From Rhizaria sp. SCN 62-66 (lineage: Eukaryota): a stretch of 20,000 nt of DNA. The translations under genes were made by a program, and so were the position numbers. The stretch is taken from positions 46,283 through 66,282 of the forward strand of contig MEDY01000137.1 of NCBI GenBank assembly GCA_001724265.1. The letters are read 5' to 3'. Positions within the stretch are counted from its first letter, which is position 1. Every line of letters starts with the position of its first letter. The notes below the pieces were generated by a model that had not been told where the DNA came from, ran no database searches, and saw only the letters and a program-made list of their open reading frames with translations. Shown in pieces: positions 1 through 18,883 of the stretch.

Positions 1-1846
1 CGGCGCGCGGGGCGGCCTCGAGCTGGGCAGCGGCGCCCGCGGCGAGCTCAGCCTCCTCTGCAGTCAGTGGAGTCGCAGTTTGAGAGTCAGCGGCGGAGCT
101 CTGTGACGCGAGAGTGGACGCAAGCGGGGGCGCGATGGGAGCGACAGCAGAAGCAGCAGCAGCAGCAGACACAGTCTCGTCGTTTCTGGCGGTCTTGATC
201 TTGCTCTTGATGGGGACGAGCGGGAACGAGTCGATGATGAAGTGGCTGTCAGGCGTGTTGGTGAACATGCACGTAACGCTCTTGACGTGATTCGCAGGGC
301 ATCCCGCCACCGCGCCGTACGTGCCGTGCTTGTCCGCCTTGTCCGCAGCCTTGGCCGCCGCGATGGACTCGGCCTCGGCGTCCTCGGCGCTGACGTTGCC
401 GCTGGCCAAAGTCATCGCTGCAAGCTTCTCTAGAGCACTGAACGCACTGTTGTCGACGGCGTTCACAGCGCCCGTGGAGATCGTTGTCTTACTGTCGGCA
501 CCGCTGCTCTTGTTGTTAGTCTCGGCAGAGTTGGTGTCGCAAGTTAAGCCGGGGAAGAGCGTGTTAATGAGCACGGTCTGCGTGTCGATGTCGGCCTTGC
601 TGACGCTGCGCTGCACTTCGAGCGGGTCCGCGACGGCCTCGAGCAGGTGGTTGTAGCGCGCGAGCTTGAATGCGTTGTCGGGGCCGAAGACGGGGAAGCC
701 GTAGTAGTACCCTCCTTGGCCACCGTCCGTGACGCCGGGCGGCGCGGGCGCGATGCTGGGGTCCAAGTGGGCGATGAAGATGGGGAAGCGAGTGTGGTCG
801 TACTTGTCCAAGTACTCAGGGCGCGGCTTATACCATGTGACCACCTGGCGCTCCACCACGAGAGACTCGATCGCAGTCCTGAGGGCACGGGGCAGCGTCA
901 CAGCAGTCGGGACAGGAGCAACGCCGGACTTTTCAGTCGTCTCGGCCTCAGCCTCAGTCTTAGCAGTCTCAGGGGTAGGCTCAGTCTTAGGCGCCTCAGA
1001 CTTGTCCTCACACTTGTTTTCATTTGCGGGCGTGAGATTTGCAGTCGTGAACTGAAGCGCAGTCTTGGCGGTGGCTGCGAAAGTCGCGTTGGCAAACACG
1101 CTGGCCTTGGTCATGGCCTGTGTCGTCCAGGGCCCCGCCGAAAAGACCACCTTCTTCGCGCGAAATGTGCCCTGGGTAGTGGACACGGCCACCTCCTCGC
1201 CGCCGGCCGCAAGCGTGACGTCGGTCACCTCGCAGCCGAGACGCGCGCGCGCGCCATGGGTCTGCGCAAGAACGTAGTGCGCCTCGATGCAGCGCTCGGG
1301 CGCGAGGATGCCCGCGTCGCGCTGGTACACCGCAACGTAGCCTTCGGGCAGCGTGAGACCAGGAAACCGCTCAGCAGTCTCGGCCGCAGAGAGGACCTCG
1401 TGGGGCAAGGAATGCTCGGTGCAGGCGCGGATCGCGCCGACCACGCCGGCGTCGTCACGCTGGCCGATGTCAAGCCCACCCGTGTAGTGCAGCAGCTTGG
1501 CCTTGGTCTCCGCCTCGAGCTCGTGCCACAGCGCGTAGGACTCCTGCAGCAGAGGCACGTACGCAGGGTGCTCCCAGTACGCCTTGCGGATGATGCGGGA
1601 CTCGCCGTGGGACGACCCGCGCGCGTGCGCAACGTGCGGAAAACGCTCAATGCCGAGCACCTTAAGCCCGCGGCGCGCGCAGTGGTACAGCGCAGCTGAG
1701 CCCATGGCGCCGAGGCCGATGATGATGACGTCGTGGAGAGTGTTTTGGTCGGCAGTGGAGTCCACGGGGAGCGGGCTGGGCCTGGAGCCAGGCTCATCGC
1801 GCATGGGGGTCAGGTAGTCGCGAGCGGTCGGCACAGGGACGGACAT
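1..1846 (-). CDS. FAD-dependent monomeric sarcosine oxidase / N-methyltryptophan oxidase (SolA/PIPOX family), 3' end outside window
   Basis: Own translation from ATG at 1846 is open to the window edge: MSVPVPTARDYL...DVIIIGLGAMGSAALYHCARRGLKVLGIERF (Rossmann GxGxxG, 1700-1717), GSSHGESRIIRKAYWEHPAYVPLL, VVFSAGPW, YYGFP, CMFTNTPDSHFIID (Cys at 269-271 matches the covalent-FAD cysteine motif of MSOX). Probably missed by the ORF track because no stop lies in the window. Confidence 0.92.
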   Translation of the reverse strand, partial: MSVPVPTARDYLTPMRDEPGSRPSPLPVDSTADQNTLHDVIIIGLGAMGSAALYHCARRGLKVLGIERFPHVAHARGSSHGESRIIRKAYWEHPAYVPLLQESYALWHELEAETKAKLLHYTGGLDIGQRDDAGVVGAIRACTEHSLPHEVLSAAETAERFPGLTLPEGYVAVYQRDAGILAPERCIEAHYVLAQTHGARARLGCEVTDVTLAAGGEEVAVSTTQGTFRAKKVVFSAGPWTTQAMTKASVFANATFAATAKTALQFTTANLTPANENKCEDKSEAPKTEPTPETAKTEAEAETTEKSGVAPVPTAVTLPRALRTAIESLVVERQVVTWYKPRPEYLDKYDHTRFPIFIAHLDPSIAPAPPGVTDGGQGGYYYGFPVFGPDNAFKLARYNHLLEAVADPLEVQRSVSKADIDTQTVLINTLFPGLTCDTNSAETNNKSSGADSKTTISTGAVNAVDNSAFSALEKLAAMTLASGNVSAEDAEAESIAAAKAADKADKHGTYGAVAGCPANHVKSVTCMFTNTPDSHFIIDSFPLVPIKSKIKTARNDETVSAAAAASAVAPIAPPLASTLASQSSAADSQTATPLTAEEAELAAGAAAQLEAAPRA

Positions 1847-2060
1847 GGGTCGCGGAGGGGACTGCAGGTGTGATTTTAGTTGATGTGACATTGGATGGCA
1901 GCGATGAGGAAAGGGAGCACGTGCGAAAAGAACGCAAGATGCGAGTGAGATGAAACCAAGATTTAGGCACTCAACGTGAATATCTCGTTGCGTATTAATT
2001 CAGTATAGTATTGAAAATTGCATATGGCTTTTGGATTCGGTTGAAAATTTCAATTTAAGG

Positions 2061-5000
2061 ATGCGTAACAACATGTTTAAACCCAAGATAGAACGCACTT
2101 CGGACCTCGTTTTGCGTTTGTGGTGGACCAGCGATTTTGGCGACTGTGGTCTGCTTTCACTCACGCGGACCCGACATCTTGCACGCGTAGGTGAACAGCC
2201 ACAACATCGACAGATCTCTGTGATTTCAACTTATACAACAGAAAGCTCACTATTCTATACGGATAAATTGTTTTTATCTCTTTAGTCCCTACTTTTCTCT
2301 TGCTGCACTCATTCCCGCCGAAGCTTGATCTCACTGATAAAGAGACCCATCCCAAAGCTTTCCCCGCGCGTCCCCTCCGCGACCACTCAGCGCAGCTCAT
2401 GCAAGGGCTGCCGCGCACATTTGAGGCAGGATGCGCGCCCATTATGCGTCTGGACTCGGACCAGCTCCACGTGAGCTACATTTCAGACGAACTGTACGGC
2501 CATGTGATGCTTGGACTTGCCGGCCTCACGCCTGGTGATGCCGTCAACCTCAAGCTCATCGCTCCTTCCAACGCCGCGTCCGCCTCCGGTGCGACGGGGA
2601 GCTTCGCGACAGCAGCACCGGGGACAGCTGTGGCTGGGGCGGCAGCGCCGGTGCTCGCTGGCGGCAGCCCGTTCGGCTCGTTTCTCGGTCTCACTTCAGG
2701 TTCATCCACATTATCAGCCAGTGGGATCTCAGCAGGTACTGCCTCGTCGTCCTCGTCGTCGCTCGTCTCGCAGCAGTGGCCGCCCGTTCCGTCCTACAGC
2801 GATACCGTGACTGACGGCACGCTCGACTACCACTACCAGCGTATCCTCCAGAACTCCGCGCTGCCCGAAGCCGACGCCCTCGCGCAGCTCGACAACTTCG
2901 CCACAGTGCCGCTCGACGTGCTCCAGGCGTCGCAAAACCGCAATGCGCTGCAGGAGCGGCTGCAGGCCATGGGCGCGCTTGCGATGTTTAACCTGAAGGA
3001 GTCTGAGAGCGGCCACTTCCCCCCGGGGTTCAAGTTCGACTGGACGATCACTCTGACGTACCACGGCCGCGAGCTCTCTGCCACGGGCTACGCCAAGGAC
3101 AACAAGAAGAACGCGAAGCAGGCCGCCGCGTACATTATGCGGCGCAAGATCGCGTACATCGACGACGTGCGGTTTAACCATGACAGCTCCCGCGAGCTCT
3201 ACACGTGCACTAAGGCCCCCTCTGTCATGGTGTCAAAGGCGGCCGCTGTGTCCGCCGCTGTTGCTGCGGGCGCGCCCTCTTTAACCGCGATCATGGGCGG
3301 CCCCAGTGCGTTTCCGCTGGGCGCCGGGCTAAGTACCCCCTTACACTTCAACCTCGGCGGCAGCGCAGGATTGATCCCGAATCCTTTTCCTCTCACAGTC
3401 ACTGGCATGACTGGCATCACTGGCATTACTGGCCAGACGGGCGCTGGCGGCGATGGTGTCGCTGTCTTCCCTTCATCAACTGCCGCTGGCGCTGGCGCTG
3501 GCATTGGCGCTGGTTTCAGTGCCGGCCTTGGCGCCACTGCTGCTATGACAGACTTAAACGCCACACCTCCCAGTGCCGTTAACAGCAGCGGCAGCGGCAG
3601 TAGCAGCAGCAGCGGTTCCCTCCCGCTCTCGTCCTCGGGGTCAGGTGTTCCGGTACGTGTGGCCACGCGTGTGGGCGAGAAAGTGCGCGCCGCTGTCGCC
3701 GCCGCGGCCGCCGATGCGACTGGCCCGTGGCTGGGCTCCGCTGCCGCTCACGGCCACTTGGCGGCGCTTGACGCAGTTGCCAATGATGAGAGTCGTGGCG
3801 GTCGCCAAGACCCAATCAGCAATCCCAACAACACGGTGACGCGTGTCTCTGGACTGAACTCTGCGTCTGTGATGAGTGATATCGACAACAACGAGTCCAC
3901 AAGCACCGACAGCACCGACACGAGCTCTATGCACCTAGGCAGCGGTGACGGCGAATGTTCTGCTGTTGGAACTCGCGGAACACATTGTACACGTGGGGCT
4001 GCGGTGAGTGACGAGTTCCAACAGAACGGCTATTGGCACACCTTCAACACCGTGCCAGTACCAGTGCCAGTGCCCTCATGGGTCAGTTTCGCTGCCTGCC
4101 CTCTACAACTACACCAACACATGACGGCAACCAACAGCAGCAGCAGCAGCAGCGATCACAGGAGCAGTGCAAGGGCTGTCGACGGGAGCACGCTTGCTGC
4201 TGATGCCGCTGCCGTGGCCGCGATCGCCCGCTCAAGCCTCAACTCTGCCGCGGTCTCCAATAGCTACAGCCCTGGCACCTCCCACGGCGCGGCCAGCGGC
4301 TCCGGCCCCCATAGTAGCAATGCCGGGGCATCCTCGGCGTCCGCAAGCCCCAGCAGCAGCGGCAGCAGCAGCGGCGGCGCATCATACGGCGGCCACCTAG
4401 CCTTGCGGGAGGCATTGGCCGAGGTTCTGACCGAAGCTTACCAGCCCTACAACAGTACAGCCAGCGCCAGCTCTGGTAGGGCAATGATGAGCGGCGCGGA
4501 CGCTGCCGTCGCCGCGGCCTCCATAGTCTCAGCGGCTGACTTAGTGGCTGTGCAGGGCGGGTACTTACCCGCGCTAAGGGCAGTGCTGCACGCGCTTGTC
4601 ACCATGGACAACACGACGACGCGTAAGTGTACCCGCGGCAAGAAGTCTAAGGGCCACTCGTCGAGCCCGAGTCAAGAAGCCACTGACAACTGCAAGACCG
4701 AGTCAAACAGCGCCAACAACAGCAGCAGCACAAGCAGTAGCAGTTCCATGTGTTCCGGTGGTACCGGTGACACCGCCGAGGAACGCGAGGAACCTGTGAC
4801 CGTGCTTGTCCAAGAGCCCTGCAAGCCTGAGACTCTGCAGCTGCTCGCCTCGCTCCGCATCACACCTATCCCAATCCCTCTCTTGCTCCCCAGCCTCAAC
4901 AGCAACAACAACATCAGCTCTAGCTCTAGCGCGAGTGCGACTTTTGGCAATAATGATATCGCTCTGCTCACGGCCACCTTGGGCTCGGCCACGTTGCCAC

Positions 5001-6772
5001 CTCCGGATTTCGCACAGCTCCCCGAGCTCCTCGCGCTGCATCGCCCACGTGCCGTGCTGCTTAGCTCCGGCGGCGGCCCCCACGGCCACGGTGGCGCTGC
5101 GCTCGCCCCCGAGAAGCTCTGGTCCGTTCTGTCGGCCGCAGTCTCGGCCGGATGCTGGGTCGTGGTGGACGAGAGCGGGGATTTGCAGACGGCGGCGGGC
5201 GCGACCGAGATGGGGGTCTCGCTGAACCCGCAGCCAATCGCGTCGGATAACGCCAGTAGCAGTGCCAGCGCCAGTGCCCGTGTCAGCGCTAGTGCCTGTG
5301 TGGACGCGAATGATGTGGGGACTGTTGTTGATGAGTCGGGTGTGTTTGTGCATCTAAGTACCCCCGGCTCGAGCCTTCTAAGTACCCGTCTAAGGGCCAT
5401 GATCGTCGCACGTGTCGCCGAGAAGTCTCTCGTCACGCAGTACCAGGACGCGGCTCTTACAGCGGCTCTAAGTACCCTCTCCAGTCTAAGTAGCAGCTCC
5501 CCCACCAATGCAACCCTCGACCCTGCGACAGCAGCTGCCGTTGCCAACGCCAAGGCTTACGTGGCGCAGCTACTGCTGCCTGCACTTCCTTTGGCAGCCA
5601 TCGCAACGCGTGCTATTAATACTCAGCAGGGCGGCGGCAGTCACGCGTCACCCCAGGTGTCATCCCAGGTGTTACCCCATGTGTATCGGCGCCGCGGCTG
5701 GCCCGTGCTCCCGCTCGGCTGCTGTGTCAGCATCGGCTCCGTGCCCGCCCTGGCTTCTCTGTCGCCGCTCTCCTGGATCGAAGCCCATCCGGCCGTCGCC
5801 GCGCATATCTCCGCCGCGCTCGCCGCAGCTGCGACGCTGCCGGCCGCCCCGTTCTTCACTGACTCAACTCGCGCAGCAGCAGCGGACTCTGGTGCGTTTG
5901 TGTCGCAGTCCCAGTCGCTGTCACTGGCGATGTCGTTATCTCAGTGCGGCGGCGGCGGGTTGGCTGCGGCCGCGCTACTGCAGGCGCTGCGCATGCGGAT
6001 GCGGCGAATGACGATGCGGGAGGCTGCTGCCGCCGGCATCACATCACTCGCCTCCGCGACGACTGCGACCGCTGTGGCCGCAACGGCGGCGGCGAATGCT
6101 GCTGGTGGCGTCGCGCCTGGCGATGCGAACTCTACGTTGTTTCCGAGCAGTATCGCGAGCGTCGGCTACGCGGCAGCGACGACGGCGACCGTCGACGGTC
6201 CCTGGCGCTATTACACTGTGTACAACGTGACCGTGGGGACCCGGGCAGCCGCTTTGGTTCACTCGGCTTGGGCGCATAAGCTGCTGAGCGACACTGTGCG
6301 CGCGGTAGTCAACGTACTGAACCGCGCTAAGGGGGTACTTACGGTGTCCGCGGGGCTAACGACTGTGTTCGCATCACAGCAGCAGCAACAAACTAGGAAC
6401 AGCACGCCGGTGCTGAAGGATGCCCTATCAGTGCCCGACGGCAATATCTGGATTACAATCGTGCCGCAATCTCCGCTCGGCGCACCCCAGAGCTACAATA
6501 ACAACAACAATAACAACAACAATGACAGCAATAATATCAATAGCTTCAGCAGTGGCACTAAGCGGAAGAAGCCCGAGACCGGCGCCGAGCTGTTGGCCGC
6601 GCTCGGCGGCAGCGTCCGCGCGGTCCTGGGCACAGCCTGTGTCGTCGGTCCGCAGTCCCCTCTGGCCGAGCTGGCGCGTCGTTCGCTTTTATTGCGCTTG
6701 GCAGGGGCGGACTATGACAGTGCAATCCGGGCTGCGAGGGCGATTGTCGCCGAGATGATGACCGCGGTATGA
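2061..6772 (+). CDS. Large protein with a dsRNA-binding motif (DSRM) and a degenerate PLP-dependent aminotransferase-like domain
   Basis: 1490-codon ORF 2300-6772. DSRM-like segment ~2936-3150 (NALQERLQ...FDWTITLTYHGRELSATGYAKDNKKNAKQAAAYIM). Aminotransferase-like blocks ~4385-6760 (GHLALREALA, VLVQEP, RPRAVLL, WVVVDES, SIGS, GNIWI, LLRLA). Start uncertain: a putative exon 2061-2190 joins in frame via a phase-1 intron 2191-2285; otherwise the first ATG is 2399. Confidence 0.75.
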
Positions 6773-6858
6773 CCGCAGAGTGCTATATCCAGATCATAGA
6801 CGCACTACATATTTGACTGTGTATTTGGGTGAGGGAATTACGGGTTTAGGGACAGTCA

Positions 6859-6895
6859 CGGCATTGTAAGTGAGTTTTTTTCACTTACAATGCCG
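6859..6895. repeat. Perfect 15-bp inverted repeat (hairpin, 7-nt loop)
   Basis: CGGCATTGTAAGTGA (6859-6873) - GTTTTTT - TCACTTACAATGCCG (6881-6895). Confidence 0.95.
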
Positions 6896-7778
6896 CGAGT
6901 GTACCAGATTTCGCACTATATATCGCATATAGCACTGTTTAAAATAAGTTGACCATATATCACGCAATACAATATTTTGTAAATCAAATTTTAGTTGTTG
7001 AATCGCATGTCTGCCCACTCATATTGTGTGTTTCCTGTTTTCTTCTCAGTGACCGTGAGCTAAGGGCCCTTAGAGGTGCAGACTGCGAGGGCGAGAGATG
7101 AAGGGTGGAGTGCGCCAGAATGAATTTCAACAGACCTACCAAATAGGCTCACACTTTACACCAATTCCAATGTCCTCCATTGCGAAGAAGACCAAGGTAC
7201 TTTCAAATCTATTTTGAAATCCCGCTCCCTGGATTGTAAATGTGCGCAAAATCGTGGAAAAGACTCACGGCTTGGTATGGTGTGCAACTGCGCGTTGGGT
7301 ATCACGACGGAAACCCAATCCTTTGCCGCTCTGCACGCTATCTTTGGCGCTGACCAACTTCATCACTCGTCTTGTGACCCTCTCTCATGTACCCTCAAAA
7401 GCTTTTCTTATGGACTAGCTTTGAGGAAGTGCGCGAAATGCCGGTCCAAAGTGCAGGTTGATGACGTTGGCGTTGCCTGAGCGTGTGGAACGTCATAAGG
7501 ATTGGTGAGCGAGCTTATTGCTCTCTCTTACGTCATGATACCGCCCGCGCTGTCGCTCGCCGGACCCTTTCTCGTCTCAGTCGAATTGTTGTCATTCTCT
7601 TTGCGATTGTTTTGCCGCGGCAAGACACTCACCTCAGAGTCGGCTCCGTTCTACACGTGGATGAGAAATTCCGCAGCTTCTAACTTGTTTTCCCTCCATT
7701 CTCTTCCCGACTTTTCTCTCTCTCTCTTCCTCGCCTTTCTCTCTGTGGTATCGTGCTTTGCTTGTGTCTCAATTTCAG

Positions 7779-8150
7779 CTTGCTAAGCTCGCTGCTCAGA
7801 AGGAGCAGGCCGTGTCGTACACGATCAAGTGCGGCGATGTCGTCTCTGCCGAGATTTTCGATGTCCCTGCCTTCGAGACCTACCTGACCTCCCACCTTAA
7901 GGCCAAGAAGGGTGGCCGCGCCGGCGACCTCGGCAAGTTGGTTGCCGTCTCGGCCACCGAGGAGGACGTCACCGTCTCGGCCGTCAGCGCCATGTCCAAG
8001 CGCTACGTCAAGTACCTCACCAAGAAGTTCCTCAAGAAGAACCTCCTCCGTGATCACTGCCGCGTTGTCGCGACGGGCAAGGCCTCGTACGCCATTAAGC
8101 CCTATAAGTCCGCTGCGTCCACCGAGGCCGCCACTGAGGAGTCCGCGTGA
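7779..8150 (+). CDS. RPL22: 60S ribosomal protein eL22 (main exon; first exon unresolved)
   Basis: YTIKC...IFDVPAFETYL...GRAGDLG...MSKRYVKYLTKKFLKKNLLRDHCRVVATGKASYAIKPY is the L22e signature. Strong C/G-ending codon bias. Pyrimidine tract plus CAG acceptor at 7778 (phase 0). Confidence 0.93.
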   Translation, partial: LAKLAAQKEQAVSYTIKCGDVVSAEIFDVPAFETYLTSHLKAKKGGRAGDLGKLVAVSATEEDVTVSAVSAMSKRYVKYLTKKFLKKNLLRDHCRVVATGKASYAIKPYKSAASTEAATEESA

Positions 8151-8339
8151 ATTGAATCAAATCGCGCAGGCTCAATGGCTTGACTTAAGTAAAGAACAAG
8201 TTTTTAGAACAGGCGTTCGCCGCAACATGCGTTCTTGAGGGCCACATAAGCTCTCTGAATACACAAACTCATCTTTAAAACCACAAAACAATCCCGTTTC
8301 AATGGTAGTATCGTATGTATTGCTTTGTCCCTATTATGA

Positions 8340-9323
8340 TTACCCCTTGGTGTGACATACAACGCTGCCATTACTCTTAACCACCAGAAACACGACCTGA
8401 ACGCTACCCTGCTGCATACCGTCATCCAGACTCTGTCCCTGCTGCTGCTGCTGCGCCGCCGCCGTCACGCCGGCACTATTGCGCCTGTAGATGGTGAGTT
8501 GGCCGGCGATTTCCCCCGAGTAGCCGCTGTCCAGCTGGCGCAGCTCGAGCGCGACGTCGGATGTGTGGGCGACCCTGGCGGCCAGCGCGCCGGCCGCGAC
8601 GGGGGGCAGCTCGCTGGTGAGGCAGCCGACGGGGTCCGTCACGGCCGCGGTGGCCGCTGCGAGCGACCAGGCCGCCGCGGGCACCGACGCGGCGGCCGCT
8701 GCGGCGACTGGACCTGCGGCCGGGGCGGCCGGTGACTGCGCGACGACCAGAGAGCAGCCTCCGGTGGCGGCGGCGGCGGCGGTCGCGGCGCAGGCCCAGT
8801 CGAGCGCGAGGTTATCATCACTATTGCAGAGAAGAGCGCTGACGTCGGCCAGCGAGTCGATGATAACGCACACACGCTGGGGTGAGACGGTGGCACTAGT
8901 TACTGCTGCCGAGGGGTGGCTGTCAGTCTACTTGATCATGCTCTTCGCTGCTGACGTGATGTGTTTAAGCAGGAACGCAAGCGCGCGCGCGCCGGCGGAG
9001 GAGTCGGGCCCCGCTGCGTCGGCAACCGCAGCCGCAGCAGCGACGTCGACGACCGTGAGCTGCTGCGACGTGACCGCAGTATCGAGCGACGCCGCCCCCA
9101 TCTTCCGCAGGATATGCGTGTAATGGTAGATCGGGTGTGATGCGCAATAAAACACGACGCGCGCGGACTGCGCAAGGCAGTGCGCAAGGAACGTGGCCGT
9201 GACGGCGTCGCCGGGGGTTGCCGTGGCGTCGTGGAGCGAGTAGACGGCGCCCGAGGCCCAGGCGGGTGCGGCTGCCGACCAGCCAAGCACGTCCGCAAGC
9301 GGATACTGCTGTGCAGAGGACAT
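8340..9323 (-). CDS. ELP6: Elongator complex subunit 6-like (RecA-like fold), with one in-frame TAG at 8928-8930
   Basis: ORFs 8928-9323 and 8340-8873 share a frame and are separated only by TAG plus 18 sense codons. N-half: VYSLHD...FLAHCL...HPIYHYTHILRKMG...LTVVD. C-half: VIIDSL, AHTSDVALELRQLDSGYSGEIAGQLTI. Both match ELP6 motifs. Ends in TAA. Confidence 0.8.
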
Positions 9324-9724
9324 GGATCAACTGCTTTAGAGCAATAAGCTGTGGTAAGCGTACTTTAAAGACTATTCTCTCGATGAGCGTTCGATTTGTT
9401 CCACCTAGAGCTTGTTTTTGGGCTGTCAAAAAGCAAAGGTGATTGGTGGAGCGTTCGTGGTGAAACGAATCAAGGGGGAAGGTCAGCAATCTTTGTAGGA
9501 GTATTAGTGGTCGTTAGAGGCAGTCAAGTGTATATTTAATTTACAGGGAAAGAACAAAGCAATATTGTCAGTATTTCCTGTTTAGCTGATATTCCGTTGA
9601 CGGTCTCTGTTGCGTCATCTATACTATGTCAACACAAGCTTCAATGGAATCCGATCCGACTTTGTCTCAACCTCTTGCTCTTCTTTCTTGCCCATTGTCT
9701 TCCTACCTTTGCAATGATAGACCA

Positions 9725-10569
9725 ATGTCTGTGAAGCACTGTTCTAGCTCGAGTGATCTTAGCAGCATCTGCTCCAATGCCGGCGGCAAGGTCGTTGTCG
9801 TCGATTTCCACGCCACTTGGTGCGGCCCCGTACGTCCATGCATCACTCGCTCCTTCTTCCCTTCCATCTAACCACGCAGTTTATCATCATCGTATTGAGT
9901 GTAGCTAAGGTGAAACTTCACATGTACGGTTTTATTTGTATTACCTAACTAATGTCACTTATTTTGTTCTACTTCACTCTGTTTCTGTTGTGCTATACCC
10001 AGTGCAAGGCGATCGCCCCGACCTTCGACTCCCTGGCTAGTGAGTACTCTTCCACCTGCGTCTTCGTCAAAGTCGACGTCGACGTGGCCAAGGACGTCGC
10101 CCAGGCTTACAGGGTCACTTCTATGCCCACCTTCGTATTTCTCCACAAGGCCCGTGAGGTCGAGCGCTTTTCCGGCGGCGACCCCAGCGGCTTAACTTCA
10201 ACCGTCGCCCGCCTGTCCCGCGAGCTCGGTCGCGGCTCTGCTTTCACGGGCGCGGGCGCCGGAGTAGCCGGCGGCGCTACTGCCGGCGCGGGCGATGCGC
10301 CCGTCAACCCTTGGGCGCGCAAGGACTTTAAGCCGCCCGGGATGGCGCAACTGCAAGCGAACTCGACTGGCAACCCCGCTCCCACCGCCGCCGCTCCCGC
10401 CGCCGCTGCTGCTGCTGCTCCTAAGAGTGGTGGCAGTGCGGAATTTGATGTGGTGTGCGACGGGGACGTGTGCCGCCGTGTTCCCCGCAACAACAACAAC
10501 GCTGCGGTAAGTAATAACAATCAGGATGACCAGAGCCAAGGATGGGGCAGCTGGTGCACTGTGATGTAA
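9725..10569 (+). CDS. Thioredoxin (WCGPC) with C-terminal extension ending in a CaaX box, ~223 aa
   Basis: Exons 9725-9829 and 10003-10569. Intron 9830-10002 (GTACGT...CAG) splits WCGP|CKAIAP. Also VVVDFHATW, FVKVDVD, SMPTFVF. Terminus is WCTVM-TAA. Confidence 0.92.
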
Positions 10570-15958: not shown

Positions 15959-18883
15959 TTAGAGGTCATCCCGCAGGTCCTGATCGGCCGGGAACATCTC
16001 CGCATCGCAGCTCATCCCTTCCTCCATCTCCTGCACATTCGTAAAGGGCGTGAACCGGTCCGCCGTCTCGAGCACCTCGGTCGGCATCCACCCGTTCTCC
16101 CACCACAGCACGGCCCGGTCCACGGCGCGCTCTTCCGGAACGGGGAAGCCCTTGCCGTCGGAGAAGACGGGCGCGTCCGTGGCCACAAGCACCACGGCGT
16201 CGGCACTCGCCTGCGCCCAGTAGACGTGGCGGAACACGCCCGCCCACGCCGCAGCGACCTGCGCGGGGGACTCGCAGTCCACTGCAGTGAAGGCTGGGAA
16301 GTCGTCGGAATCCTCAACGACTCCATGTTCCGCAGAAGCATACTGCGAATCCTCCGTCCGTCCGCTCGCGTCGGCGTTTGAACCACTGGTAGATTGAGAC
16401 TGGTTCTCGCTAGAGGTTAAACCACTCGCGCTTGCACGCGCGGCATCCCCTTTGGTGAGATCGCGCGAACCCGCGGTCGCCGCGGTCGCAGCGGCCGCAG
16501 CAGCCGCATTGTCGCCCCCATTGCTCGAGTCCCTCTGGTGGCTGTTCTTGCCCGCCTTGCAGTGCGCGGGCAGCAGCGGCACGCGGCGGATGATCGCGGC
16601 CCCGGGCGCAAGCGTGGCCTGCAGTCTCCGCAGCACGTGCGGCGCCGTCAGCGACGGGTCCGCCACGGTGTCCTGGATGATCAGGTGGTACTGCTTCACG
16701 GGCCGGTGGAGCGCGGGCGCTGCGAGCAGCAGGGGCGCAGCGGCGGCCGGGTCGACGATGATGCAGCCGCTCGCCGCGACGGCCTCCGCCTCGGCCTCCG
16801 CGGTCGCCGCAGTCGCCGCGGTCGCAGCTTCAGCGTCAGCCGCGTCGGCCGTTGTGGCGTCGGAAGACTTAGCAGTGGCACTGGAGTCGCTAGCTGCGTT
16901 CGCGGGAGCAGCAACAACCTCCGCGTCAACCACAGTTGAGCCACTCGCGCTCTTAGCAGCGCTGGACGCTGCCTCCAAGCCGCCGCCGTTGTTCTCCGAC
17001 AAGGCCTCCTTGCTACCGCTCAGCAGGGGGAGCTCCTTGGTCGCGGCCACGTGCGCCGCCACCGCCGCCTCGGCCTCCGCGGACGGAAACAACGCCGCCA
17101 CGAATGCCGACGGCGTGCAGAGTGCGGAGTACGCGCGGACGCCCCCGGCCAGCGGCGGCAGCGCCAGGGACGCGCCCGTGGGGGACGTGGCGTTGTGAGC
17201 GGCCGTGTCGCGGTCGACGGCAAGGCTGGCCGTCACACTGCCAGCACGGTCAGAGCCAGAGCCCACAGTGTCGGAGTCAGCGTCGGCGTCGGCGTCGGGA
17301 GCGGCCGCGCTCGCCGGTGCACTGCTGGGGCGAGCAGCGTTCAGAGCTGAGCTGACGGTAGTCGCTGCAGTAGCAACGGTAGTGGCGCTGGCGCTGTCAG
17401 GAGCCGCTTGCCGTTGTGACGTGGGTAGAGTGTCGAACCCGGCCCAGATAACTGCCTCGGCAGCCGCGGCGGCCTCGGCAGCGCCCGGGATCCCCTCCTC
17501 GGCCGCCTCGGCCGCCGCCGCCGCCTCCGCAGCCGCTGAGCACGCCGAGTACCCGTTCGAGTGCTCCAGATTCGCCACCGCAGCCGCGACGCGCGCGGCG
17601 GTCGCGCCTTCGAACGCGAGCTGCACGGGGTGATCCGGCGGGCCGTCCACGGTCACGTACGCGCGGGACAGCAGCTCGCGGGCGGCGTCGCGCGCCACCA
17701 GATCGCTGTCGACCGAGTCCGTGACTGCGTGGGGGAAGTAGCGGTCGAAGTGGGCCGGCAGCACAGCGGCGGCCGAGGCGCCGAGCAGGAGCACCGACGT
17801 CACGGGCGCGTGCGTGAAGATGCAGGCAGACAGCATCAAGCACTGCGACGGCGACAGCGGCGCAGCGGGGGTCGGGACGGGCGCAGCAGGCGCGTTGTGG
17901 GCCGCGACCGCAGTTGCGGCCGCGGCGGCGGCGGCCGCGGTGGTCGAGACGAGAGCCTGTGTGAAGACGAACGGCGTGGGGTAGGTGTCGTCGCCGCCGT
18001 CGTAGACGGCCTGAAACTCGAATACAACCTTCGTTTCTTCGGCGTCATCCTCTAACGCCTCCAAAACACTGTTCTTGACGCTAGATGTGTGGTTGTTGGC
18101 GGCGCTATTGGCAGTGTTGACAGAGGAGCGTGTGAGGGCCGCGATGCCCCCGGCAGCCGCGGCCTCCGTCGGCGTCATTGCAGAGCCACCCTTGCCGTGC
18201 TTGAGCTGCTGCTGCAGCTGCAGCGCGAACAGGGGCGCGGTGGCGTGGCGGACGACGCGTATGCGCAGCGTCGGGTTTGCGGCCGAGCGCTGGTCGAACA
18301 CGATGGTGCCATCGTGCAGCGCGATGTCTCCGGCCAGCTGAGCCGCGGCCAGTTCGCGCGCCATGTCGTCCAGGTTGCGCAGGCCGCCGGGCGCGGCGGC
18401 GCTATCACTCCCATCCTCATCGTCGAAGTCGTTGGTATCGAACGGCTTCGCGTCAGAGCTAGAGCCAGCGCCAGCGCCGGCGGCTGAGAGGGCGGCGGAT
18501 AAGGCGGCGGCGCGGGCGCTTGTCGTGCTTGCCTTGTTAGCGGCAATGGGGGACGCAAAGAGCGCGCGGGCAAGGTTAGCGGCGTCGCGGTCTGACAGTG
18601 AAGCTGCAGGAGCGAGTGTGCTGGTGCTAGGGCTAGGGGTGTTGTTGTTGTTGTTGCTGTTGTTTGAGGTTGTGAAGGCGGAGGCGGGGAGATGTACAAC
18701 CGAGCCAACAGGGAGCAAGCACGACTGGAACGCAAGCGAAGCGCCAAGAGAGGGCTTCTGAGCGAGAGTCGAGACGCTGCGAGTGGAAGCGTGCTTCGAC
18801 AGAGCAGCGGAGGCCGCGGCTGACGTGGTTGAGAGTGCAGCTGACACGACGCCGCGGGAGGCGACTGCGGCGGCGCGCTTCAT
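15959..18883 (-). CDS. Degenerate SAM-dependent methyltransferase / spermidine-synthase-like fold protein, possible mitochondrial presequence, ~974 aa
   Basis: Likely start MKRAAAVASRG at 18883 (Arg/Ser/Ala-rich, acid-free, RSVS motif). SVLLLGASAAAVLPAHFDRYFPHAVTDSVDSDLVARDAA resembles motif I/II. YHLIIQD, LQATLAPGA and VFRHVY...VVLVAT resemble later strands of this fold. Confidence 0.6.
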   Translation of the reverse strand: MKRAAAVASRGVVSAALSTTSAAASAALSKHASTRSVSTLAQKPSLGASLAFQSCLLPVGSVVHLPASAFTTSNNSNNNNNTPSPSTSTLAPAASLSDRDAANLARALFASPIAANKASTTSARAAALSAALSAAGAGAGSSSDAKPFDTNDFDDEDGSDSAAAPGGLRNLDDMARELAAAQLAGDIALHDGTIVFDQRSAANPTLRIRVVRHATAPLFALQLQQQLKHGKGGSAMTPTEAAAAGGIAALTRSSVNTANSAANNHTSSVKNSVLEALEDDAEETKVVFEFQAVYDGGDDTYPTPFVFTQALVSTTAAAAAAAATAVAAHNAPAAPVPTPAAPLSPSQCLMLSACIFTHAPVTSVLLLGASAAAVLPAHFDRYFPHAVTDSVDSDLVARDAARELLSRAYVTVDGPPDHPVQLAFEGATAARVAAAVANLEHSNGYSACSAAAEAAAAAEAAEEGIPGAAEAAAAAEAVIWAGFDTLPTSQRQAAPDSASATTVATAATTVSSALNAARPSSAPASAAAPDADADADSDTVGSGSDRAGSVTASLAVDRDTAAHNATSPTGASLALPPLAGGVRAYSALCTPSAFVAALFPSAEAEAAVAAHVAATKELPLLSGSKEALSENNGGGLEAASSAAKSASGSTVVDAEVVAAPANAASDSSATAKSSDATTADAADAEAATAATAATAEAEAEAVAASGCIIVDPAAAAPLLLAAPALHRPVKQYHLIIQDTVADPSLTAPHVLRRLQATLAPGAAIIRRVPLLPAHCKAGKNSHQRDSSNGGDNAAAAAAATAATAGSRDLTKGDAARASASGLTSSENQSQSTSGSNADASGRTEDSQYASAEHGVVEDSDDFPAFTAVDCESPAQVAAAWAGVFRHVYWAQASADAVVLVATDAPVFSDGKGFPVPEERAVDRAVLWWENGWMPTEVLETADRFTPFTNVQEMEEGMSCDAEMFPADQDLRDDL

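Follow-up and report, generated by a model that had tools for sequence, protein, structure and literature searches.

The window analysed here is a stretch of 20,000 nucleotides (nt) from Rhizaria sp. SCN 62-66 (contig MEDY01000137.1, positions 46,283 to 66,282 of the forward strand). It carries a long plus-strand open reading frame (ORF), referred to below as the fusion gene, that joins a double-stranded RNA (dsRNA)-binding domain (dsRBD) to a domain that appears to derive from class I aminotransferases (Table 1). At the DNA level this fusion is real: a single stop-free frame (window positions 2267-6772, 1501 codons) covers both parts, as the initial annotation of the locus had proposed, and both homologies lie above their controls. 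Translation from the first Met (nt 2399) yields a protein of 1457 amino acids (aa), 43% of which is low complexity; Met16 (nt 2444) is the start of the database entry P0002. The protein was called twice in the protein collection, in Logan and ENA, with identity across 1457/1457 residues, possibly from one shared source. The window is eukaryotic in style: its coding stretches are GC-rich, its spacers are richer in AT, and the neighbouring RPL22 gene is intron-split. The stretch upstream of Met1 (2267-2398) is pyrimidine-rich with AG sites; it could be an intron acceptor, and an upstream exon is possible. No Rfam families were found in window 1500-8500.

In sequencing run X4, depth was present in 30/30 bins, and a 980-nt contig starts before the dsRBD and reaches into the linker. 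The poly(A) run X3 contributed four listed mismatch-free contigs, located in the linker and the C-terminal part, for which DNA carry-over is possible. None of the 15 joints listed, of 27, was a GT-AG joint, and joints with short sides were taken as repeats of other organisms. The in-frame skip of 3943-4302, which has 97 letters on the shorter side of the joint, is probably a deletion allele of the linker. Both single-nucleotide polymorphisms listed in run X4 (2/2) are synonymous. Together with the fact that the sole credible large deletion is in-frame and lies in the linker, this is weak evidence of selection on the fusion gene.

We compared the N-terminal domain with two dsRBD models. Pfam PF00035 matched an 87-aa piece at aa 182-247 (model positions 3-62 of 66, E = 2.6e-4) with 21.9 bits, just below the curated cut-off of 23 bits, and matched the whole protein with E = 0.021. 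An independent profile, built from 34 bacterial RNase III dsRBDs (34 of 35 fetched loci, one unpublished locus being omitted), scored 8.2 bits at aa 181-245, whereas all 200 local shuffles scored 2.6 or less and the reversed control -5.4. The DSRM-like motif noted initially thus stands. Three RNA-contact regions define dsRBDs: a Glu in region 1, a loop His motif in region 2 and a lysine patch in region 3 (PMC4748816). In the fusion protein, Glu186 provides the helix-1 Glu, and Lys236, Lys237 and Lys240 make up the lysine patch. Profile comparison shows that its dsRBD is homologous to the family, with most of the predicted RNA-contact residues kept.

To align the C-terminal part, aa 655-1457, we used our own profiles (class I from 46 and 84 non-redundant sequences, MocR-like from 41 and class II from 12) and made long insertions cheap. 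The insertion-tolerant class I alignment reached a Z-score of 6.6, and 0/100 shuffles reached its score. With all gap settings tried, the general class I profile gave Z 6-7.5 against local shuffles. Against block shuffles Z was 3.0-4.8, and in neither case did a shuffle equal the real score. Controls remained lower: Z was 2.6 for the reversed model and -1.5 to 2.8 for 16 other insertion-rich pieces of this genome, while the class II (oxoamine-synthase) profile gave Z 0.9, a score reached by 19/100 shuffles. Shuffling 40-aa blocks showed that block order matters (Z 4.6-4.8, 0/100), in agreement with the ordered class I blocks separated by insertions that had been read from the sequence. This means that a class I aminotransferase origin of the C-terminal domain is well supported by alignment.

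The signal is uneven along the domain, with Z 6.0-8.0 for aa 655-930, 0.8-2.4 for aa 926-1330 and 2.4-2.8 for the last 130-170 aa. The profile comparisons show class I homology for aa 663-926, and hhalign against the class I alignment gave E = 3.3e-4 for aa 801-926. The remainder matched weakly on its own (aa 926-1457, Z 1.7-2.2), and the small-domain match was marginal (1-4/200 shuffles; 23/1000 local and 169/1000 block shuffles). The alignment suggests that the fold is probably complete, with a large and a small domain. Standard searches were less informative. When the C-terminal part and pieces of it were searched against Pfam, NCBIfam and PDB sequences, no aminotransferase match was significant (best NCBIfam PRK07550, E = 0.1). 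In plain hmmsearch runs, neither the class I nor the MocR-like profiles distinguished the fusion protein from shuffles, and hhalign found no match to the class I alignment for the C-terminal pair or for either candidate Lys-loop piece. For the C-terminal domain, PF00155 clusters appear in the ESM Atlas at 0.86, which we treat as a lead only. Matches to a Polycomb EED insertion were rejected, as they fall on an Asn run. This illustrates that insertion-inflated protist genes can hide domains from Pfam.

A MocR type, named beside class I in the initial annotation, was not borne out. Over the whole region the MocR-like profile did no better than its own reversed model; over the N-terminal part it reached Z 6.2, yet with a lower score than the general class I profiles. 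Pfam and NCBIfam searches found no GntR or MocR family match in the fusion protein, and the dsRBD occupies the N-terminal place. As judged from these profiles, the domain does not appear to be MocR-type in particular, and the link to MocR is one of analogy, not membership.

Next, we focused on the active site. Conserved fold type I residues contact the phosphate and the pyridine nitrogen of pyridoxal phosphate (PLP) and the substrate carboxylate (PMC9309667). Within aa 663-926, Tyr663, Gly665, Gly721, Pro807 and Asp924 are kept by alignment. Asp924 (nt 5168), which had been recognised as the pyridine Asp, occupies a column that is Asp in 70/70 rows (posterior 0.91-1.0). The C-terminal Arg is likewise retained by alignment as Arg1433 (nt 6695; Arg in 79/84 rows, also in the relative P0003 described below), with a posterior of only 0.19-0.60 and with Arg1427 competing. 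Other positions have changed. The aromatic residue that stacks on the PLP ring is replaced by Lys809, the Asn-Pro pair by Gly896-His897 (Gly896 in the ring-contact Asn column) and the ring-contact Tyr, three residues past the Asp, by Gly927. In addition, Gly721 is followed by the bulky Tyr722-Leu723, where references are mostly small or polar. The alignment shows that, whichever register applies, three PLP-ring contacts have been lost: the Asn, the Tyr and the stacking aromatic.

The Schiff-base Lys column is Lys in 84/84 reference rows. With two of three profiles, its posterior for aa 985-995 is 0.79-0.97, which places Ser991 or Ser992 there and Arg999 in the phosphate-Arg column (0.69-0.89). 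The third profile splits the column between Lys1009 (0.24-0.57), Lys1052 (up to 0.34) and, for the rest, Ser991. The Lys-loop that had been assigned to 5729-5776 is not supported, as its posterior (aa 1110-1125) is at most 0.02 in 12/12 settings and aa 975-1035 scores higher than aa 1095-1150 with 3/3 profiles. Each candidate segment is weak alone (29/1000 shuffles for the preferred one, 44/1000 for the other). As read from these alignments, the catalytic Schiff-base Lys is probably absent. The earlier description of a catalytically dead domain is thus likely rather than proven: the three replaced ring residues make it probable, as does the Ser that two of three profiles align to the Lys position, and the posterior of Lys1009 with one profile speaks against it. 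Under the preferred register, window 5657-6265 (aa 1087-1289) is an insertion with non-repetitive segments that include the motif first taken as the Lys-loop. The unguided structure model predicts a beta-hairpin near aa 1258-1279, and a partial internal duplication is a possible origin of aa 1087-1289.

An unguided single-sequence AlphaFold2 model of the C-terminal part reached a predicted local distance difference test (pLDDT) score of 37.7. A second model was guided by an alignment limited to aa 662-925; its core blocks scored about 85-96 in pLDDT, a partly circular result, with values mostly below 60 elsewhere. Foldseek, proposed earlier as a check, gave no match at E <= 0.001 for either model (best 1.9e-3 for the guided one). 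VIA-align superposed the guided model on PatB, HisC, AspAT and other fold type I chains with Z 10-12 and a root-mean-square deviation of 3-4.4 Å over 130-170 residues. These matches span aa 662-1005, past the guided part, and are circular for aa 662-925. Their end, at aa 1000-1004/1005, lies past the Lys loop of the solved enzymes by the Lys numbers of these targets, consistent with a Lys column close to aa 991.

The fusion protein has almost no relatives. Apart from the query, HMMER searches over 1.84 billion representatives returned a single sequence, the 95-aa metagenomic fragment P0003 (E = 2.8e-4), which shares 37% identity over 90 columns of the C-terminus, without the Asn insertion, and keeps Arg1433. 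P0003 alone did not match the class I profile (15-27/200 shuffles reached its score), and its source contig was not recovered in metagenome scans. Among longer proteins, the dsRBD piece matched only itself (872 candidates) and P0003 matched none (0/8000); among proteins of similar length, the dsRBD piece matched 0/12. Metagenome scans gave no orthologues, one metagenome match (L026) being judged chance, and the nine viral contig stretches contained no relative. There is no paralogue in the fusion gene's own genome, where weak matches cover low-complexity stretches.

That genome has nine PF00155 matches, which belong to seven ordinary genes, two of them intron-split, so aminotransferase enzyme function would be redundant. 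The fusion gene is its only PF00035 match (1/1 candidate), a number that is a lower bound. It also encodes two Piwi-domain proteins and a Dicer-like ORF. The latter has no dsrm match and ends about 75 aa past its second RNase III domain; no dsRBD-like exon is apparent by eye downstream, and a possible splice donor overlaps the stop. Searches of this genome for PF14709 and for an RNA-dependent RNA polymerase gave no match, and both were uninformative. The link between the Dicer-like gene and the fusion gene is co-occurrence in the genome only.

Table 1. Features of the fusion gene, of its genomic neighbourhood and of RNA-silencing genes elsewhere in the genome (window positions unless a contig is given).
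Feature	Position	Strand	Remarks
Single open frame of the fusion gene	2399..6772	+	1457 aa from Met1; no intron evident
dsRBD, aa 180-250	2936..3148	+	PF00035 and independent profile; third-position GC 0.89
Ser/Ala/Gly/Asn-rich linker, ~410 aa	3155..4381	+	Low complexity; no Pfam match
In-frame skipped stretch, aa 515-635	3943..4302	+	360 nt; missing in one sample's contigs (X1 = X2); no GT-AG ends
N-terminal part of class I large domain, aa 663-926	4385..5176	+	Four blocks split by insertions; Z 8.0, 0/500 shuffles
Preferred Lys-loop register, aa 982-1005	5342..5413	+	Ser991/Ser992 (nt 5369-5374) in Schiff-base column, Arg999 (nt 5393) in phosphate-Arg column
Lys1009, minority alternative Schiff-base Lys	5423	+	One of three profiles
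Lys-loop of the initial annotation, aa 1109-1131	5723..5791	+	No Lys either; not the preferred register
Probable small domain, aa 1290-1457	6266..6769	+	Asn-rich insertion, Arg1433; only part with a relative (P0003)
Piwi-domain genes, two	G000:C125 46467-47369; G000:C66 9866-10990		One lies in a 2146-codon open frame
Dicer-like open frame, 4732 codons	G000:C37 about 21886-36084 (L233, L234)	+	Helicase, weak Dicer-dimer match, two tandem RNase III domains; insertion-inflated
FAD-dependent oxidoreductase, divergent neighbour	2-1855	-	Pfam DAO E = 1.4e-34; long low-complexity insertions too
Ribosomal protein L22e	7169-8150	+	Intron-split
ELP6-like gene	8340-9326	-	
Thioredoxin	about 9700-10569	+	
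Insertion-rich frame, 970 codons	15959-18883	-	No Pfam match

We propose that the fusion gene encodes a pseudoenzyme that serves as an RNA-binding scaffold, probably dimeric, and presents dsRBDs; we give this reading a probability of about 0.5. A class I aminotransferase would have lost its chemistry and become joined to a dsRBD through a long flexible linker. The dead domain may still fold and self-associate, since enzymes of fold type I form dimers or tetramers (PMC9309667), and the dimer would then present two flexibly tethered dsRBDs, giving avidity for duplex RNA. One speculative role is to supply dsRNA binding in trans to the Dicer-like protein; alternatively, and equally speculatively, the protein may stabilise or regulate structured mRNAs. 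Conservation of the C-terminal fold in the diverged relative P0003, including Arg1433, is counted in favour of the scaffold, as is the RNA interference setting (two Piwi-domain genes, a Dicer-like ORF without dsrm match and the sole PF00035 match). The initial annotation had offered a metabolite-sensing or a dimerising regulator. The dimerising option fits better, because characterised MocR regulators need PLP (PMC5320631) and the YczR group of MocR keeps the Lys (PMC4944035), whereas the fusion protein appears to have lost several PLP contacts.

Several observations speak against this scaffold. The His motif of dsRBD loop 2 is non-canonical: Phe211 takes the His column, and His206 lies at another place in a longer loop, which could weaken or change RNA binding. 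The retention of Tyr663, Gly721 and Asp924, and probably of Arg999 and Arg1433, exceeds what a pure scaffold would require. Within the aminotransferase fold, the middle third (aa 926-1330) is matched most weakly, and no fold was found for the unguided model. The RNA contigs include none that covers both the dsRBD and the aminotransferase part, and poly(A) run X3 shows zero depth in the dsRBD bin. No relative that carries both domains was found in protein, metagenome or viral-contig searches, and the own-genome search behind the sole dsRBD was insensitive. Finally, two-hybrid assays in the case of Plasmodiophora showed no interaction between its dsRBD proteins and the RNase III enzyme (PMC13547706).

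The kept residues could instead point to a ligand-sensing RNA regulator, an RNA counterpart of MocR/GabR, in which non-covalent PLP, pyridoxamine phosphate, a PLP-amino-acid aldimine or a phosphorylated or carboxylated metabolite re-orients the two dsRBDs of the dimer. Tyr663, Gly721, Asp924, probably Arg999, and Arg1433 correspond to contacts with phosphate, pyridine nitrogen and carboxylate (PMC9309667), and NF45 retains nucleotide binding in a dead active site (PMC3467086). However, the stacking aromatic, Asn and Tyr are lost, Tyr722-Leu723 adds bulk after Gly721, the MocR-like profile is not preferred, and a low-complexity linker of ~410 residues, 120 of which are deletable, would couple the domains poorly. 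We consider such a sensor unlikely. A fuller version, in which the dimer binds vitamin B6 or an amino acid non-covalently, switches its dsRBDs and partners the dsRBD-less Dicer in trans as an RNA-level counterpart of MocR, is a long shot; if true, it would tie small-RNA production to metabolic state.

Alternatively, the aminotransferase part may be a decaying relic, a partly unfolded passenger of a protein in which only the dsRBD and the disordered regions matter, for example in RNA granules. The share of low complexity, the weak homology past aa 926, the unguided pLDDT and the near absence of relatives are consistent with decay. Against this, nothing interrupts the frame over 800 codons, block order and hydrophobic pattern are preserved, the guided core blocks score highly (in part circularly) and P0003 conserves the extreme C-terminus at 37%. 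The Dicer-like ORF is insertion-inflated, yet keeps two RNase III domains, so insertions alone are no sign of decay in this genome. A relic is quite unlikely on balance.

An active enzyme that a dsRBD brings to RNA would require Lys1009 (or Lys1052) as the Schiff-base Lys, or a relocated Lys809, which faces the cofactor site by alignment. The kept Asp924 and the split posterior of one of three profiles suit this possibility. Two profiles, however, favour Ser991/992, the Lys1052 register ranks last or next to last among four and its stretch is helical in both structure models, the guided-model matches extend past the Lys loop of solved enzymes, and Asn, Tyr and the aromatic are lost whatever the register. 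We regard an active enzyme as very unlikely. That two genes or an assembly artefact account for the fusion is scarcely credible: no single read or contig covers both domains, but the 1501 codons lack a stop, the same protein was called in Logan and ENA (possibly from a shared source), and run X4 provides depth in every bin and the contig from before the dsRBD into the linker.

Returning to the pseudoenzyme scaffold, comparison with known systems suggests that the fusion protein would work most like NF90/NF45 and resembles MocR in layout, being a member of neither. NF90/ILF3 and NF45 pair dsRBDs with a catalytically dead dimerisation domain, the use predicted here, and one partner has residual ligand binding (PMC3467086). 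Unlike the fusion protein, their dead domain is a nucleotidyltransferase (DZF) rather than a PLP fold type I domain, two dsRBDs follow it, and the pair is an obligate heterodimer. MocR/GabR regulators also have an N-terminal nucleic-acid-binding domain, a linker and a class I aminotransferase fold (PMC5320631, PMC4944035); they are dimeric and use the fold for regulation, both of which are only proposed for the fusion protein, whereas they are bacterial and bind DNA by a GntR helix-turn-helix, and the fusion sequence is no closer to the MocR-like profile. In serine palmitoyltransferase, LCB1/SPTLC1 is a fold type I subunit without the PLP lysine (PMC3794620), a loss that is probable here, but it belongs to class II, whose profile the fusion protein does not match (Z 0.9), has no dsRBD and is half of an active heterodimer. 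Plant methionine S-methyltransferase (MMT) is a eukaryotic fusion with a C-terminal aminotransferase domain (PMC9135737), with a methyltransferase as the N-terminal partner. In SHMT1 riboregulation, a PLP-dependent enzyme binds RNA (10.1101/2023.03.17.532973), and RNA binding is also predicted here, but SHMT1 is an active enzyme that uses its own surface for this, without a dsRBD.

In the literature searched, from which subscription papers are mostly absent and which was covered at the level of listings and abstract openings, no dsRBD-aminotransferase fusion appeared. The domain architecture is real and apparently undescribed, and is known from one genome, the protein having one fragmentary relative. 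The Dicer partners Loquacious, TRBP and DRB1 have two or three dsRBDs and are not known to carry an enzyme fold. They offer a dsRBD in a separate protein, in cells with Dicer and Argonaute (PMC4748816); the fusion protein would do so in a genome that has Dicer-like and Piwi-domain genes. If it is a folded pseudoenzyme, PLP fold type I joins the enzyme folds reused as dsRNA-binding scaffolds, beside NF90/NF45, and the MocR design arose again with RNA as its target. If metabolite sensing or Dicer partnering is true as well, there would be a direct link from amino-acid or vitamin B6 status to RNA silencing.

The neighbouring L22e, ELP6-like and thioredoxin genes show no apparent functional link to the fusion gene. 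The divergently transcribed flavin adenine dinucleotide (FAD)-dependent oxidoreductase, which we take to be sarcosine-oxidase-like, shares the insertion-rich style. In the minus-strand frame at 15959-18883, blocks seen by eye resemble those of a spermidine-synthase-like methyltransferase with a degenerate glycine loop, and this frame may encode a second hidden or dead enzyme domain.

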